This document shows, in pieces, positions 32,937 through 38,445 of a stretch of 64,000 nt of DNA. Within the stretch, counting starts at the first letter, position 1. Every line of letters begins with the position of its first letter. Source of the DNA: Candidatus Eiseniibacteriota bacterium (GTDB taxonomy: Bacteria; Eisenbacteria; RBG-16-71-46); assembly GCA_041483195.1 (NCBI GenBank), contig JBGPFC010000007.1:1-64000 (forward strand). Direction: 5' to 3'. Position numbers and translations under genes: made by a program. The notes beneath the pieces are model-generated. The model saw nothing but the letters and a program-made list of their open reading frames with translations. It was not told the origin of the DNA and searched no databases.

Positions 32937-34880
32937 GTGATCCAGCTGCAGAAACTCCGTTACTCGATCGGCGATCGGGTGCTCTTCGAGGACCTGGACT
33001 GGGTGCTCGCACCGGGCGACCGCGTGGCGCTGGTCGGGCCGAACGGCGCGGGCAAGACCACGCTCATCCGCGTGATGCTGGGCGAGTACCAGCCGGAATC
33101 GGGCGCGCGCGTGCTCGCGCGCGGCACGCGGCTCGGCTACCTGCCGCAGGAGGCGGCTGAGCGATTCGACGGCACGGTGCTCGACCGCGCGATGGAGGCG
33201 CATCGCCACCTGCTCGGCATGCGCGAAGAGCTCGACGCCCTCCACCAGCGGCTCTCCGGGATCCGCGCCGAGGACGCCGATCTCGAAGCGCTGCTCGAGC
33301 GCGCGGGCGAGCTGCAGCACCACCTCGAGCTCGGCGACGAGCACGCGCTCGAGCCCGAGGCGCGGCGCGTGCTGACCGGTCTCGGATTCTCGAGGCGCGA
33401 TCAGGACCGGCCGCTGGCGGAGTTCTCCGGCGGCTGGCGCATGCGCGCGGCGCTCGCCGCGCTGCTGCTCACCGACCCCACGCTGCTGTTTCTCGACGAG
33501 CCGACCAACCACCTCGATCTGCCCGCGATGGAGTGGCTCGAGGACTACCTCGAGGAATTTCACGGCGGGCTGGTGGTGGTCTCGCACGATCGCGTCTTCC
33601 TGGACCGCGTCGCGACCGAGGTCCGCGAGCTGGACCGCGGCACGCTCAGCGACTATCCCATGAAGTTCACGCAGTACCTGGAGGAGCGCGAGCTGCGCCG
33701 CGAGCGGCTCGAGGCGCAGAACGCGCAGGTCGAGAAGCGCATCGCCGAGCTGTCGCGCTTCGTCGAACGCTTCGGCGCGAAGAACACCAAGGCCGCGCAG
33801 GCCCAGAGCAAGCGCAAGATGATCGCGCGGCTCAAGACCGAGCGCGTGGTCATCCCGCACCGCGCGAAGAGCATCCGGTTTCACTTCCCCGACCCGCCGC
33901 ACGCCGGGCGCACCGTGGTCCGCCTCAAGGACGTGGCGTTCGGATACGGCGAGGCCGACGTGTTCGCGGGCGCGCGCCTCGAGATCGAACGCGGCGACAA
34001 GGTCGCGATCGTCGGCGCGAACGGCGCGGGCAAGACCACGCTGCTGCGCGTGATCGAGGGACAGCTCGAGCCCCGCGCCGGCGAGCGTGAGACCTATCCC
34101 CATACGAAGCTCGCCTACTTCGCGCAGCACGCCGCCGAGACCCTCGACGCCACCCAGACGGTGCTGGGCGCGGTCGAGGACGTGGCGCCCGCGGAGTGGC
34201 GGCCGCGGCTGCGGAGCCTGCTCGGCAACTTCCTGTTCTCGGGCGACGACGTGTTCAAGCTGTGCCGCGTGCTCTCGGGCGGCGAACGCCAGCGGGTCGC
34301 GCTCGCACGCATCCTGATGGCGCCCGCGAATCTCATCCTGCTCGACGAGCCCACCCACCACCTCGACCTGGCGGGCAAGGAAGTGCTCGAGGACGCTCTC
34401 GAGCAGTATCCGGGGGCGATCGTGGTCGTGACCCACGACCGCTCGCTGATGGCCCGGCTCGCGACCCGCATCATCGAGGTCAACGACGGGCGCGTCGTGC
34501 TCTATCCGGGCGGCTACGACGACTACGAATCGGCGCGGCTCGCGCGCGTGGCGGGCGCCGTCCCGCCGCGGGCGGACGCCACGCGCGAGCAGCCGCGGGC
34601 GGCCGTGAAGCCCGCGGCGCCCGCGACGCCCCCCCGGAAGCAGCCGGGCCGCGGGACGGAGCGCGCCGCCCGCGGTGGGCAGCCGAAACGCGACAAGGAG
34701 CTGCTGCGCATCGAGCAGGACATCGAGGCCCGCGAGGCGAAGCTTCGCGCGCTCGAGTCGCAGCTCGCCGATCCCGACATGTACCACGATGGCCCGCGCG
34801 CGAAACAGCTCGTGACCGAATACGAGCGACTGCGCGCCGAGCTGGACTCGCTGTGGGCCCGCATGGCGGAGCTGGGATAG
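32937..34880 (+). CDS. ABC-F family ATPase (YheS/Uup-like)
   Basis: Two ABC domains (GPNGAGKT, FSGGW, LDEPTNHLD; GANGAGKT, LSGGE, LDEPTHHLD), no TM segments, and a C-terminal coiled domain. Confidence 0.95.
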   Translation: MIQLQKLRYSIGDRVLFEDLDWVLAPGDRVALVGPNGAGKTTLIRVMLGEYQPESGARVLARGTRLGYLPQEAAERFDGTVLDRAMEAHRHLLGMREELDALHQRLSGIRAEDADLEALLERAGELQHHLELGDEHALEPEARRVLTGLGFSRRDQDRPLAEFSGGWRMRAALAALLLTDPTLLFLDEPTNHLDLPAMEWLEDYLEEFHGGLVVVSHDRVFLDRVATEVRELDRGTLSDYPMKFTQYLEERELRRERLEAQNAQVEKRIAELSRFVERFGAKNTKAAQAQSKRKMIARLKTERVVIPHRAKSIRFHFPDPPHAGRTVVRLKDVAFGYGEADVFAGARLEIERGDKVAIVGANGAGKTTLLRVIEGQLEPRAGERETYPHTKLAYFAQHAAETLDATQTVLGAVEDVAPAEWRPRLRSLLGNFLFSGDDVFKLCRVLSGGERQRVALARILMAPANLILLDEPTHHLDLAGKEVLEDALEQYPGAIVVVTHDRSLMARLATRIIEVNDGRVVLYPGGYDDYESARLARVAGAVPPRADATREQPRAAVKPAAPATPPRKQPGRGTERAARGGQPKRDKELLRIEQDIEAREAKLRALESQLADPDMYHDGPRAKQLVTEYERLRAELDSLWARMAELG

Positions 34881-34886
34881 CGCCCT

Positions 34887-34902
34887 GGTAGTGGTCTAGT
34901 TT
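34887..34902 (+). repeat. Left terminal inverted repeat
   Basis: GGTAGTGGTCTAGTTT, with the GGTA start typical of IS1-family ends. Confidence 0.95.
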
Positions 34903-34952
34903 GAACACGCGGCCCCCTTCCCAAAACGGGCGTGACGTGCCACATTACGTGC

Positions 34953-35189
34953 ATGCCTGCCCGCGCAAGAAAACGCCCTCGCGATCCGAACCGGCTCGCC
35001 TTCCAAGTCGTTCAGGAAGCTACCAAGCAAACCCCAGTGGCCCCGGACACGAGAAATCCGGCCGCCGTGGCCTTGTCGAAACTCGGAGCCTCCAAGGGCG
35101 GGATGGCCCGCGCCGCGAGCCTGTCGGTCGCGCGGAGGCGGGCCATCGCCAAGAAGGCGGCTTGGTCGCGGTGGGGCAAGAAGAAGTAG
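34953..35189 (+). CDS. Small basic KGG-motif protein (passenger, possible nucleic-acid binder)
   Basis: KRPRDPNRLA...NPAAVALSKLGASKGGMARAASLS..RR.IAKKAA..RW. Extended -10 TGcCACATT lies 6 nt before the ATG. Confidence 0.8.
   Translation: MPARARKRPRDPNRLAFQVVQEATKQTPVAPDTRNPAAVALSKLGASKGGMARAASLSVARRRAIAKKAAWSRWGKKK
34954..34971. promoter_or_regulatory. Operator-like palindrome, copy 1
   Basis: TGCCTGC-CCGC-GCAAGAA. Confidence 0.55.
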
Positions 35190-35228
35190 GATGTGGCGCG
35201 GTTGAGAACCAATCGAAAGGGGAAAAGC

Positions 35229-35375
35229 ATGGCTAAGAACGAGAAAACCTCTTCGGAGGTTTCCAAGGCAGCCAGTGCCATTTTGCGCGCCCGCAACTCC
35301 ACCAAGAGGGTGAAGAGCGTGGCCGGTTCGGCACTCACCCAAGCCCCGGACAAGGGGAACAAGAAGAAGCCCTGA
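35229..35375 (+). CDS. 48-aa basic hypothetical protein (passenger)
   Basis: RBS AAGGGG. Sequence MAKNEKTSSEVSKAASAILRARNSTKRVKSVAGSALTQAPDKGNKKKP. TGATG coupling to the next gene. Confidence 0.7.
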   Translation: MAKNEKTSSEVSKAASAILRARNSTKRVKSVAGSALTQAPDKGNKKKP

Positions 35376-35632
35376 TGCGGCTGGTGCTCGTGGAATGGCT
35401 GGATTCATTCGGTTGCTCGGCAACGTGGGAGCAGCTTGATGGCTGCTCCCCGCATCTTTTGACGTGTCGATCTGTCGGCTGGCTTATCCACGACGGCGAC
35501 GACTGCAAGGTGATTGTCCCGCACGTTTCGCAGCCCAATGAGGGGTGCGGGCAACAAGGCTGCGGAGACATGACGATTCCCACCCGCGCGATAGTCAGGA
35601 TGGCCGACCTGTCCGAGTCCTCGGCGGCCTAG
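35375..35632 (+). CDS. 85-aa Cys-rich hypothetical protein (passenger)
   Basis: LVLVEWLDS..W...CRSVGWL...MTIP..AI pattern, translationally coupled to the previous gene. Confidence 0.7.
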   Translation: MRLVLVEWLDSFGCSATWEQLDGCSPHLLTCRSVGWLIHDGDDCKVIVPHVSQPNEGCGQQGCGDMTIPTRAIVRMADLSESSAA

Positions 35633-35648
35633 CTCGATTCTTTCTTGC

Positions 35649-35677
35649 TTGACTTTGCCTGCCCGAGCAAGCATCAT
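35649..35677 (+). promoter_or_regulatory. Transposase promoter containing operator-like palindrome copy 2
   Basis: TTGACT-17 bp-CATCAT with the ATG 6 nt downstream. The spacer holds TGCCTGC-CCGA-GCAAGCA (35656-35673). Confidence 0.6.
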
Positions 35678-35683
35678 GGCTAC

Positions 35684-36508
35684 ATGAACAGGTTGAGTGT
35701 TGAGGAGCAGGTTCGAATCGTGGCGGTGCTGGTCGAAGGCAACAGCCTTCGGGCAACGGCGCGAATCACCGGCTTTGCCCGCATGACGATTGAGAAGCTC
35801 CTGCGCGATCTCGGCTCGGCGTGCGCCGAGTATCAGGACGTGACGCTTCGCGGCCTGCCTTGCAAGCGCATTCAGTGCGATGAGATTTGGAGCTTCATCT
35901 ACGCGAAGCAGAAGAACCTGCCCGAGAAATTCGCCAAGGAGCCCGGCTACGGCGACACATGGACGTGGACGGCGATTTGTGCGGACACGAAGCTCGTTCC
36001 GTGCTGGCTGGTTGGCCCGAGAAACAAGCGCGCCGCTCGAGAATTCCTCTTCAACCTGTCGGTGCGGATGCGTGGCCGCTTTCAGTTGACTACTGACGGC
36101 CACACCGCCTACCCGGATGCCGTCGAGCGTGTCTTTGGCCATGAGATTGACTACGCGACGCTGACCAAGATTTTCGGGACTGACCCCCAGAACGAAGCCC
36201 GCTACAGCCCGGCGCACCTCACCGGCACGCAAGCCGCAATTATCAGCGGCGATCCGAACCGACGGCACATCTCCACAAGCTATGTCGAGCGGCAAAACCT
36301 GACCATGCGCATGAGCATGCGCCGGTTCACGAGGCTCAGCAATGGATTCAGCCGCAAGGTCGAGATGCACCAGCGTGCGATCGATCTCCACTTCATGCAT
36401 TACAACTTCTGCCGCATCCATCAGACGCTGCGCGTGACCCCGGCCATGGCGGCGGGCGTAACCAACCGGCTTTGGGATGTGGAAGACATCCTCGCCCTGC
36501 TCGACTAG
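35684..36508 (+). CDS. IS1-family DDE transposase (single ORF, HTH plus catalytic domain)
   Basis: LVEGNSLRATARITG HTH, IQCDEIWSF, WTWTAI, LTTDG, STSYVERQNLTMR and HYNFCRIH...TPAMAAG. Confidence 0.93.
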   Translation: MNRLSVEEQVRIVAVLVEGNSLRATARITGFARMTIEKLLRDLGSACAEYQDVTLRGLPCKRIQCDEIWSFIYAKQKNLPEKFAKEPGYGDTWTWTAICADTKLVPCWLVGPRNKRAAREFLFNLSVRMRGRFQLTTDGHTAYPDAVERVFGHEIDYATLTKIFGTDPQNEARYSPAHLTGTQAAIISGDPNRRHISTSYVERQNLTMRMSMRRFTRLSNGFSRKVEMHQRAIDLHFMHYNFCRIHQTLRVTPAMAAGVTNRLWDVEDILALLD

Positions 36509-36517
36509 GAGGAGCAC

Positions 36518-36760
36518 ATGAACAATCGCCAACGCCTTGCGTTTGCTCTCGCCTGCTGGATCGCGTGCGGGCTGATTCTGGCTCCCTGTGACCGGGCGAC
36601 CAGCCACTTTTTCAACCTCCCGGACGGCTACTATCCGAACGACATGGCGATGCTGCGATCCGGCTACGCGCCGATCGCCCGGACGGTGGATCTGGTGATC
36701 GCCGCGCTTCTCGGCGGAGCCGGGCTCACGGTGCTGCTCGGTTGGAAAAAATCGAACTGA
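36518..36760 (+). CDS. Small two-TM membrane protein (passenger)
   Basis: RBS GGAGGAG and two hydrophobic stretches. Confidence 0.65.
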   Translation: MNNRQRLAFALACWIACGLILAPCDRATSHFFNLPDGYYPNDMAMLRSGYAPIARTVDLVIAALLGGAGLTVLLGWKKSN

Positions 36761-36764
36761 TCCA

Positions 36765-37619
36765 CTAGCCACCTTTGACTCTTCTTTTCTCAAAGTATTT
36801 GGCCATTGTTTCTCTAGCCCCCCGCTCCCCTCTTTGAGCAGCCATCCGTTCCCGCCTATATAGTCGGTCGAGGTCCTTCACCATTGGTGAGTCCGGGCCG
36901 TCGAGCCCTCGATTTCCGTCGTGGCCGATAGAGAACACGTCGGTGGCCCGCCCGACACCAGGAGCGATCTCGCCGCGCTTCTTCGCGAAGAACACGGACA
37001 CAAGGGCGGCAGAGGCGGCCACTTCTCGCGTGTGGCCTTGGAGCATTAGGTACGAGTTCGCGTGCCAGCCGCCCGTTCCGATTGCCGCGAACCCAACCGA
37101 GTCCTCGCAACTGGGTGCGCCGCGCTTACCGATGAAGATGTGGGCACCAGTCGCGTCTACGCCGGCAATGATGCACCCGACTTCCAAGTCGTAGTCCTTG
37201 GCCGACTCGGCTAGACCACCAATCAGCATCTCGACAAGTCCAGCGCTCAAGTTCTGCTGCTGCTGGTTAAAACTCTTCCACGTGAGCCCGTACGGGCCGA
37301 GAATGTCTGCCTCGGCCTTTGCCCTGTAGGCTGCGGTGGCGAGTCGCCCATAGGATTCAGCTACCCACCCCACTTCTGGATCGCTTGCTTCGTCGCGAGT
37401 TGCGATCAGGCTCCGAAGCTGGCTGAAGATGCCGGACTGGATCGACACGTTCCCCGCAACCATTGCGACCAGCGATTGACCGAGCCATTCGAGTTTGGAG
37501 CGTCGAGGCTCGAACTCTATGACATCCGAGGTCAACATCTGATCGGAGGCACCTAGGACCCAGTCTTGGTATTTGGTTTGGCTGCCAAACCTGCACAGCG
37601 CTGCGACGCAGACCGTCAC
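36765..37619 (-). CDS. Proteasome beta-subunit-like Ntn-hydrolase (passenger)
   Basis: GTG after AAGGAAGG gives M-TVCVAA (Thr1). Also VLGASD, SKL, MVAG, IIAGVD, FAAIGTG and APGVG..TD. Confidence 0.78.
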   Translation of the reverse strand: MTVCVAALCRFGSQTKYQDWVLGASDQMLTSDVIEFEPRRSKLEWLGQSLVAMVAGNVSIQSGIFSQLRSLIATRDEASDPEVGWVAESYGRLATAAYRAKAEADILGPYGLTWKSFNQQQQNLSAGLVEMLIGGLAESAKDYDLEVGCIIAGVDATGAHIFIGKRGAPSCEDSVGFAAIGTGGWHANSYLMLQGHTREVAASAALVSVFFAKKRGEIAPGVGRATDVFSIGHDGNRGLDGPDSPMVKDLDRLYRRERMAAQRGERGARETMAKYFEKRRVKGG

Positions 37620-37694
37620 AACCGGACCCTTCCTTCGTGGCGGCGACAGCGTCCTGCGCGGTTTGCGCGACGGCCTCAGCCGCGGAAAGGGGCG

Positions 37695-37727
37695 AGCATA
37701 GTCCGTGCCTACGTGCCCGCGCAAGCA
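37695..37727 (-). promoter_or_regulatory. Promoter of the proteasome-like gene overlapped by operator-like palindrome copy 3
   Basis: Minus strand TTGCGC-18 bp-TATGCT. Plus strand TACGTGC-CCGC-GCAAGCA at 37710-37727. Confidence 0.5.
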
Positions 37728-37741
37728 ATCGGGCTGATTTG

Positions 37742-37757
37742 AAACTAGACCACTACC
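37742..37757 (-). repeat. Right terminal inverted repeat
   Basis: AAACTAGACCACTACC, followed by the AGCGCCCT target duplication. Confidence 0.95.
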
Positions 37758-37772
37758 AGCGCCCTCCCCGGA

Positions 37773-37801
37773 TTGACGCGCGTCTCCCGCCCCGCTAACG
37801 T
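37773..37801 (+). promoter_or_regulatory. Sigma70-like promoter of the BMC gene (probably leaderless)
   Basis: TTGACG-17 bp-TAACGT, ATG 8 nt downstream, no Shine-Dalgarno sequence. Confidence 0.55.
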
Positions 37802-37809
37802 GCCGCGGC

Positions 37810-38445
37810 ATGGCCGACGTCACGCTGCGCAGCTACATCTTCCTCGACAGCCTCCAGCCGCAGCTCGCGGCGTTCATCGGCACCACCGCCCGCGGGTTCC
37901 TGCCGGTGGCGGGTGACGCATCGATGCTGATCGAGACCGCGCCGGGCCTGATCATCAATCGGATCACCGACGTCGCGCTCAAGGCGACGCAGTGCACGCC
38001 CGCGATCATGGTGGTCGAGCGCGCGTTCGGGTTGCTCGAGATCCACCATCGCGACAAGGGGCAGGTGCAGCTCGGCGGGCAGGCGGTGCTCCAGTACCTC
38101 GGCATCGACGAGCACGACCGGATGAAGCCACGCGTGGTCTCGGACCAGGTGATCCGAGCGGTCGAGCCCTATCATGCGCAGGTCATCAACAAGACGCGAT
38201 ACGGCGACATGCTGATCGCCGGCGAGAGTCTGCTCATTCTCGAGACCGAGCCGGCGGGATACATCGCGTTCGGCGCGAACGAAGCGCTCAAGGCGGCGCG
38301 CGTGAAGCTGATCGACGCTTCGTTGTTCGGCGCCTACGGGCGGCTCTACCTCTCCGGCCCCGAGGCCCAGATCGACGCGGCACGCGACGCGGCGCTGCGC
38401 GGGCTCGGCACGGTCACGGGCCGGGAAGCGAAGGGCAGCGTCTAG
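37810..38445 (+). CDS. Bacterial microcompartment tandem-domain shell protein (BMC-T, CcmP/CsoS1D-like)
   Basis: [45 protein letters not shown] and [10 protein letters not shown]. Confidence 0.9.

Follow-up and report, generated by a model that had tools for sequence, protein, structure and literature searches.

We analysed a 64,000-nt stretch of the genome of Candidatus Eiseniibacteriota bacterium (contig JBGPFC010000007.1, positions 1 to 64,000; this whole stretch is called the window below), in which an intact element of the IS1 family of insertion sequences (IS), 2,871 bp long, occupies positions 34887-37757 and carries the gene of a proteasome-like hydrolase together with its transposase gene. 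The left terminal inverted repeat (TIR) of the element, GGTAGTGGTCTAGTTT (34887-34902, plus strand), is complementary at 16/16 bases to the right TIR (37742-37757, minus strand), and 8-bp copies of the target-site duplication (TSD) AGCGCCCT lie outside the two TIRs (34879-34886 and 37758-37765). Positions 34879-37765 read AGCGCCCT / GGTAGTGGTCTAGTTT ... AAACTAGACCACTACC / AGCGCCCT, and a repeat finder reported the same arms. TIRs of IS1 are defined as beginning with GGnnnTG and its target duplication as 8-9 bp; GGTAGTG starts both ends of the window's element, and the duplication of 8 bp falls within that range. The left TSD copy includes the last two bases of the stop codon of an ABC-F type gene (two ABC_tran domains, ABC_tran_Xtn and ABC_tran_CTD in Pfam), because the frame of that gene ends at 34880 (TAG, 34878-34880). 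The gene downstream of the element, from 37810, has a BMC-domain match of 24.1 bits, just below the Pfam cutoff of 24.5. All six open reading frames (ORFs) between the TIRs are intact and tightly packed: three small ORFs on the plus strand (orf1, orf2 and orf3), a single-ORF transposase gene, a hydrophobic 80-aa ORF (orf5) and the hydrolase gene, which is convergent with the transposase gene. A preliminary description of the locus, made from the sequence alone, had proposed perfect 16-bp TIRs, an 8-bp TSD that takes in the end of the ABC-F stop codon, and the same gene content; all of these were borne out, with three start codons refined. Scans of 34500-38200 for tRNA genes and Rfam families gave no match.

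The genome is a 93-contig metagenome-derived assembly, and the segment could in principle have arisen in assembly, or two repeats could flank unrelated genes by chance. The TIR 16-mer, with at most 3 mismatches allowed, occurs at 2 places in the window compared with 0.04 expected, and 0/100 shuffles gave 2. The junctions were compared with contigs of public sequencing runs other than X1, which is the possible source of the window's DNA. Runs X2, X3 and X4 supplied contigs that span the left junction, and runs X2, X3 and X6 contigs that span the right one, with no letter differences in those pieces, and no contig joining straight across the element (the empty site) was found among the contigs of the other public runs. 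One X6 contig agrees up to exactly 37757 and then runs into different sequence, a hint of a copy of the element in another context. Misassembly, which the preliminary description had named as something that would refute it, is unlikely since contigs from other runs bridge both junctions identically. The end motif is far above chance, and the same end sequence recurs in 48 related elements (see below), of which 41 also have an exact duplication of 7-10 bp; both points likewise speak against an artefact or a chance repeat pair, to which we give hardly any weight.

The element is single-copy in its own genome (93 contigs, 96.8% complete), and its G+C content is 0.58-0.63 compared with 0.67-0.76 in the flanks. 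A DNA search of 40 relatives matched both flanks and found the element at the ABC-F/BMC site in none of them. In five genomes (G003, which is of the same genus, G015, G010, G006 and G019) the two flank matches are ~45-90 bp apart, and where the junctions were read (G003, G015 and G006) the BMC start lies ~60-105 bp after the ABC-F stop with a short spacer between them. G015 reads ...TGAGGCGCCCTCCC..., the window minus the element would read ...TAGCGCCCTCCCC..., and at the place of the window's target G015 has GGCGCCCTCCC. In G018 the site holds ~0.6 kb of unrelated sequence, and the sole interior match among the relatives is a 67%-identical stretch of a transposase gene elsewhere in G026, an unpublished genome on which no other result here depends. 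The earlier proposal of a recently inserted, intact IS1-family element with passengers is upheld by the TIRs and TSD, the single copy, the lower G+C and the site that is empty in relatives, three of which read through it with a short spacer. The element would have entered the ABC-F ATPase/BMC-domain intergenic spacer of this sediment bacterium recently, by a staggered 8-bp cut, and presumably transposes as IS1 does. Transposases of this type occur in 9/206 genomes of the host phylum, its own genome counted, at no more than 62% identity, and the proteasome-like gene occurs in 1/206 (E<=1e-10), namely the window's own; the proteasome-like gene is therefore foreign to the host lineage. As a separate observation, the adjacency of the ABC-F gene and the BMC-domain gene (37810-38445 in the window; L071, L074 and L080 among the relatives) is conserved across the host family and order, and the insertion parts the BMC gene from ~45 bp of its native upstream spacer.

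The transposase gene (35684-36508, plus strand; start at ATG 35684 by family consensus) encodes in a single ORF a 274-aa transposase of the DDE (Asp-Asp-Glu) type with an N-terminal region resembling a helix-turn-helix (HTH). It matches PF03400 with an E-value of 7.6e-8 and 33.2 bits (cutoff 24.1). At least 8000 relatives are present in the protein index, all 8000 at E<=0.001, and source records name relatives 'IS1 family transposase'. In an alignment of 44 sequences D66 and D138 never vary and the conservation of E202 is at least 90%; the motifs around these three acidic residues, CDEIW, TDGH and ERQN, resemble those of IS1 InsB. The arrangement of insA and insB' joined by a -1 frameshift was not found; the transposase is one uninterrupted 274-aa ORF, and we therefore place the element with the single-ORF branch and not with classical IS1. 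ISfinder has both single-ORF and passenger-carrying (ISMhu11-type) subgroups of IS1. The window's element thus shares with the IS1 family the PF03400 DDE transposase, the GGnnnTG ends and the 8-bp duplication, and differs from classical IS1 in having neither insA nor a programmed frameshift, and in its length of 2.9 kb compared with ~0.77 kb for IS1. The element is real, intact and ordinary in kind, an IS1-family transporter IS (tIS).

A metagenome scan with the transposase was used to survey related elements and returned at least 80 loci at 55-64% identity. A matching end pair, with the consensus GGTAGTGGGTCAGTTTGAA, was found at 48/80 loci, and 41/48 of these elements have an exact duplication of 7-10 bp, mostly 8 bp. 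Their lengths range from 1,884 to 4,846 bp, and the other 32/80 loci are mostly too short to include both ends. Together with the element of the window and the four that a search with the protease gene brought in (L005, L026, L031 and L068), the 48 elements make a set of 53 with defined ends, and the ORFs of this set were clustered. A transposase gene is present in 51/53 of them, the exceptions being L026 and L068.

The clustering assigned orf1 to the constant part of these elements. It is a basic, three-helix protein of 78 aa (34953-35189, plus strand) encoded ~65 bp inside the left end, most likely from ATG 34953 according to the family alignment, in a frame without a stop codon from GTG 34932 onward. 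Of the transposase-selected elements, 46/48 have it at the left end whatever the cargo (L082 and L104 are without it, and in L084, L099 and L132 it is truncated), and for this reason orf1 is a constant component of this IS1 lineage and not cargo. The preliminary description had counted four small passengers; orf2, orf3 and orf5 are indeed non-constant, while orf1 has to be removed from that count. D11, A16, G45, G49, A69, A70, R73 and W74 are invariant in orf1. The predicted structure has three helices with a mean predicted local distance difference test (pLDDT) of 81.8 and a low predicted template-modelling score (pTM) of 0.37, and it was not used for a fold search. No Pfam family was found for orf1 (the best single-member E-value is 0.004, and the commonest family matches 4/44 members at E 0.069 or worse), nor any relative in the Protein Data Bank (PDB; best E 2). 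It sits where insA of IS1 would be but is unrelated to it in sequence, and a cargo slot lies between orf1 and the transposase gene. We also observed cargo proteins of ~375 aa with a P63C domain (L088:2847-3992, and similar ones in L094 and L099) with a tail like the motif GGxKGGxARA...RW at the C-terminus of orf1, and this shared tail motif is why they were grouped with orf1 in the clustering.

There are two cargo slots, one between orf1 and the transposase gene and the other between the transposase gene and the right end, and their content differs between elements. The two elements with exactly the ends of the window's element are L100 and L115; their orf1 proteins are 70% and 69% identical to its orf1, yet they have no cargo in common with it. 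This bears on the earlier suggestion that the five accessory genes form one self-contained system. In such a case orf1, orf2, orf3, orf5 and the hydrolase would be a coherent mobile proteolysis, defence or addiction system travelling as a unit, and the six intact, closely packed ORFs, the overlap of orf2 and orf3 and the start of orf5 10 nt after the transposase gene are compatible with it. However, the set is shared by 0/52 other end-defined elements, the hydrolase gene occurs without orf2, orf3 and orf5 in L117, L105, L095, L150 and L158, orf1 is kept in 46/48 elements regardless of cargo, and orf5 is an orphan without relatives. Tabulated across homologous elements, the cargo is variable (L100 and L115, for example, carry Rosmer), which largely refutes the coherent system as it had been proposed and leaves the element itself untouched; we regard travel of these genes as a unit as very improbable.

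Pfam was used to annotate 71 cargo ORFs and PADLOC to annotate 69. The Pfam matches include MazF (in two elements), HicB, P63C, Fic, NYN, DUF3800, HARE-HTH and nSTAND1, as well as M78/ImmA-IrrE with HTH, HATPase with DUF4325, HD with HD_assoc, and SieB. Among proteases, Pfam showed ClpP in three elements, SDH-type ClpP-like proteins in two and an aspartyl protease in two, and the cargo of L159 includes a second kind of PF00227 proteasome protein. Other IS transposases were found nested in L005 and L026. PADLOC detected Rosmer RmrA with RmrT in L100 (RmrA at E 2.6e-70) and in L115, PD-Lambda-2_B in L089 (E 6.6e-44), a dGTPase (E 1.5e-119) and PDC-S45 in L103, and SoFic in L125 (E 2.7e-42). Judged by Pfam, PADLOC or membership in the protease cluster, 16/48 elements have peptidase-type cargo, and 21/48 if clustering alone is accepted; by kind there are 6 proteasome-like, 3 ClpP, 2 SDH-type (of which L153 is not among the 16), 3 M78 and 2 aspartyl cases. 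As an observation on the slot between orf1 and the transposase gene, a minus-strand module of two genes, for a ~160-aa protein with no Pfam match and a ~380-aa protein, is present in L089, L112, L121, L152 and L153. The larger protein of L089 is the one that matches PD-Lambda-2_B at E 6.6e-44, with a weak match to Peptidase_M78, and the other four were assigned by clustering only.

The hydrolase gene (36765-37619, minus strand) encodes a proteasome-like N-terminal-nucleophile hydrolase of the T1 type with 284 aa and a GTG start. Its frame is open out of the element to 37823. We set the start at GTG 37619, which gives the N-terminus MTVCVAA, and not at 37823, because 16/17 aligned homologues share the corresponding N-terminus MT(V/I)C(V/I)A, 14 of them at the called start and 2 behind a short leader; GAAGGAAGGG lies upstream of GTG 37619. 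A word-indexed search found 52 relatives, many of which have a precomputed PF00227 annotation, and at E<=1e-3 the family comprises 1957 representative clusters, of which 153 remain at E<=1e-30. The hydrolase itself is below the Pfam reporting level and matches TIGR03634 at E 0.0035. All of the 60 profile matches listed against PDB sequences are proteasome alpha or beta subunits, the best with E 1.2e-4. In 47 sequences K42 and G56 never vary and T2 and D26 hardly ever do, and a GFAAIGxG motif is conserved. Profile alignment to the proteasome beta2 chain 5fmg_I places D26 and K42 on the GAD and SK positions (Asp17 and Lys33), and the hydrolase keeps the equivalents of Thr1, Asp17, Lys33 and Gly47 of T1 catalysis. 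Removal of Met1 would expose the Thr1 equivalent, and these residues suggest that the protein is an active peptidase.

The AlphaFold model of the hydrolase has a pLDDT of 95.8 and a pTM of 0.90 and shows the alpha-beta-beta-alpha fold of the proteasome. Foldseek returned at least 500 matches, and all 46 listed are 20S proteasome subunits with E-values of ~2e-10 and target template-modelling (TM) scores of 0.6-0.8. Compared with a canonical subunit the model has additional helices at residues 114-123 and 126-146 and a 39-residue C-terminal helix (245-283). A prediction of a complex of three copies gave a score of 0.13 compared with the mark of 0.42, and so argues neither for nor against oligomerisation.

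Among the transposase-selected elements the hydrolase gene occurs in 5/48 (L095, L105, L117, L150 and L158), always as the last gene at the right end, on the minus strand and convergent with the transposase gene, as in the window. The 2,133-bp element L117 contains orf1, the transposase gene and the hydrolase gene only, and since it has no other cargo we regard the hydrolase gene as single-gene cargo. In the elements found with the protease query, the gene is at the right end on the minus strand in L005, once that element is oriented with its transposase gene on the plus strand, and at the left end on the plus strand in L031. L026 (2,477 bp, TSD GAGACGTA) and L068 (1,528 bp, TSD GGCAAGAA) have IS1-type ends and the hydrolase gene but no transposase gene. 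Mobile insertion cassettes are transposase-less derivatives bounded by IS ends, and L026 and L068 are alike in having the same type of ends around the hydrolase gene without a transposase gene, whereas the window's element is autonomous. Elements nested within elements were also observed: an insert of 3.5 kb, which encodes a rve/Mu-C-type transposase, interrupts the IS1-type transposase gene of L005:5256-11774, and an IS3-type transposase gene splits the hydrolase gene of L026:5961-8437.

Genome copies of the hydrolase gene were collected by a search with an 18-sequence alignment, which gave 68 loci from many bacterial phyla and some archaea. At L053 the gene lies within an element with ends of another type, and at further loci only fragments of a transposase gene or of orf1 are near it. 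Other solitary copies are near restriction-modification genes, integrases, resolvases, HipA, SieB and NYN, and an IS1595 transposase gene adjoins the copy at L046. A different mobile context was observed at L013:135-3040, where the hydrolase gene and a large serine recombinase gene lie within perfect inverted repeats of 114 bp. A tblastn search at E<=1e-5 found no match to the hydrolase in 50,697 phage or 72,556 plasmid records; the hydrolase is present in 4 IMG/VR contigs, with the IS1 transposase, orf1 or IS1-type ends near none of them. A quick tree was built from the 62 copies whose ORFs have 200 aa or more; copies that are shorter and decayed were excluded. It ignores taxonomy, L032 and L033 for example being identical across two phylum labels, and the window's hydrolase is on a long branch and of unsure placement. 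These two copies (L032:5836-6648 and L033:6022-6834) also have identical patatin-like neighbours, in genomes labelled Candidatus Binatia and Pirellulales from apparent sister samples; either very recent transfer or a binning error would account for the identity.

The distribution of the gene is relevant to two other explanations of its presence. In the first, the hydrolase would serve the transposon, for instance by timing transposition through proteolysis of the transposase, of orf1 or of a host factor, and proteases would be favoured cargo as tuners of transposition. Peptidase-type cargo is frequent (16/48 elements), and the hydrolase gene is fixed in position and orientation beside the right end, both of which speak for such a helper. 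However, most elements of the family are without a protease, most members of the hydrolase family are outside any IS, and the M78 proteins match the known defence components RmrA and PD-Lambda-2_B, so a helper in transposition appears unlikely to us. In the second, the hydrolase would be the toxic half of an addiction pair that stabilises the element, and a small neighbour such as orf5 or orf3 would inhibit it. Such a pair would fit with the occurrence of MazF, HicB and Fic modules in sister elements, and with the convergent position of orf5 at a gap of 4 nt from the 3' end of the hydrolase gene. No small partner is conserved beside the hydrolase gene, however, either across elements or across genome loci, and L117 has none; we consider this explanation somewhat less likely still than that of a transposition helper.

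With regard to known systems, the term tIS denotes IS derivatives that carry passenger genes, as used in two sources (PMC9330008, PMC7986276). The window's element agrees with it in that orf2, orf3, orf5 and the hydrolase gene lie within the TIRs and would be transposed along with it. Most tIS carry a single gene or resistance genes. The lineage of the window's element is different in having two slots with cargo of defence or toxin-antitoxin type and a constant accessory gene. Proteasome homologues that occur as orphans in prokaryotes, including PHI (with a helical insertion) and WPH (widespread), were catalogued in 2021 by Fuchs, Alva and Lupas (PMC8665760). As described there, they resemble the hydrolase in a proteasome beta-like core without propeptide and in extra helices after H1/H2 (residues 114-146 of our model), and its C-terminal helix (245-283) is comparable to H5, for which a coiled coil is predicted in WPH, ACC and some PHI; both also occur in bacteria and archaea (PMC8665760). 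In these features and in its range the hydrolase resembles PHI or WPH, a likeness by description and not by cluster sequences. In the main text of PMC8665760 the string 'transpos' occurs 0 times, and transposons are not mentioned there. With HslV, Anbu, BPH and the 20S beta subunits the hydrolase shares the fold, the N-terminal Thr and the Asp, Lys and Gly catalytic positions. It differs from the 20S proteasome in being ~13-17% identical to the solved chains among the Foldseek matches listed, and from all four in that its gene has no neighbouring AAA+ unfoldase gene and is carried on a mobile element. A literature search, with most subscription journals outside it, found no description of this IS1 branch or of a transposon-borne proteasome-like gene.

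Taking these results together, we consider it probable that the window's element is an autonomous IS1-family tIS of the single-ORF branch with independent cargo modules, and that the hydrolase is a single-gene passenger, probably of conflict or defence type. The constant machinery is the DDE transposase and orf1, the latter placed like InsA. The slots of the window's element hold three independent modules, namely the phage-type pair of orf2 and orf3, the membrane-like orphan orf5, and the hydrolase gene reading inward from the right end. The hydrolase would work as a stand-alone peptidase gene, likely in conflicts involving phages or other mobile DNA, or else by helping to keep the element stable; we suggest this role because sister slots hold genes for Rosmer, PD-Lambda-2-like, dGTPase, SoFic, SieB, MazF, HicB, Fic, NYN, ClpP-like and aspartyl-protease proteins. 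The defence or addiction flavour attributed to the cargo in the preliminary description is plausible to the extent that sister slots hold known defence and toxin-antitoxin genes, but the six proteins of the window's element match 0 families of PADLOC-DB 2.0 at E<=0.1. What is added is at the level of the family: a constant orf1, cargo slots of defence type and the repeated capture of an orphan proteasome homologue.

Several observations weigh against this interpretation. The transposase matches NF033558 at E 5.3e-15 with 55.9 bits, below the curated NCBIfam cutoff of 100. Its closest relatives, P0054-P0060, are 75-80% identical and fall outside the surveyed elements at 55-64%; a location on the same contig is only suggested for the pairs P0054 with P0003 (4374 bp) and P0055 with P0025 (3339 bp; proteasome-like matches). 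A role of orf1 as a DNA-binding accessory or regulator is argued from position, conservation and charge alone. The hydrolase matches no PADLOC model at E<=0.1, and because of this its defence role is one by association only. Matching IS1-type ends surround the hydrolase gene in 4/68 genome loci (L005, L026, L031 and L068), and many copies outside elements lie between housekeeping genes. The ten IS-borne copies are scattered on the quick tree, with 8 label changes of which at least 4 are forced by well-supported branches (shuffles gave a mean of 9.4 label changes, and 46/500 were as low as observed); the scatter therefore indicates recurrent capture and not a fixed partnership.

A stronger form of the interpretation is possible, although we hold it with considerable doubt: the IS1 branch with GGTAGTGGGTCAGTTTGAA ends may be a widespread shuttle for immune or addiction modules of one or two genes, undescribed so far as our search extended, and the hydrolase a new stand-alone protease of the anti-phage or abortive-infection kind. 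If so, it would offer the first functional handle on an uncharacterised proteasome homologue catalogued in 2021. Larger islands, prophages and Tn7-like elements are usually credited with the mobility of defence genes; if the interpretation of independent cargo modules is correct, an IS1 lineage that is very common in the environment would move small defence and toxin-antitoxin modules between phyla. In that case orf1 would represent a novel class of accessory protein for IS elements, and the cargo slots could be used as a guilt-by-association filter by which the uncharacterised genes that share them with Rosmer, dGTPase, SoFic and SieB, namely those for the proteasome-like, ClpP-like, SDH-type and aspartyl proteases and for many proteins with no Pfam match, become defence candidates. 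A stand-alone, horizontally mobile Thr-protease without an unfoldase partner would also be an accessible model for the orphan proteasome family.

The remaining genes of the window's element are small. The lysine-rich orf2 (35229-35375, plus strand, 48 aa; phrog_5079, E 8.8e-11) and the Cys-containing orf3 (35375-35632, plus strand, 85 aa; phrog_25889, E 7e-4), which belongs to a small family of phage type, are variable cargo, and the start of orf3 overlaps the stop of orf2 (TGATG). The pair recurs in one other element only, L152, at 52% and 37% identity and in convergent orientation; the orf3 homologue there is L152:4142-4396 (37% identical). The nearest Atlas clusters of orf3 are viral (score 0.93), which we take as a lead only. 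Two stretches of the 80-aa orf5 (36518-36760, plus strand) are hydrophobic; the ORF has GGAGGAG as its ribosome-binding site and lies 10 nt downstream of the stop codon of the transposase gene. In an index of 5.8 billion proteins only orf5 itself was found, and no library searched gave a family for it; orf5 is an orphan that may not be a real gene.

A scan for promoters and terminators gave 1 promoter-like site, TTGACT-17-CATCAT (35649-35677, plus strand), which lies upstream of the transposase gene; with 0.6 expected, this is not significant. Just inside the right end, positions 37697-37731 (plus strand, repeat D1) repeat in direct orientation, at 77% identity, the 35-bp segment in which orf1 starts (34941-34975). 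A family-wide binding site in this subterminal position was considered and rejected, as 1/53 elements shows the repeat and the other 52 never exceed their own shuffle control. In the window's element the repeat scores 31 compared with a shuffle maximum of 21. Its core is the motif TGCCCG(C/A)GCAAG, with sites at 34954-34969 and 37710-37725, of which a third copy (35656-35671, repeat D2) is found in the spacer of the promoter-like site, and the repeat together with this third copy may be an operator set or a relic of rearrangement.

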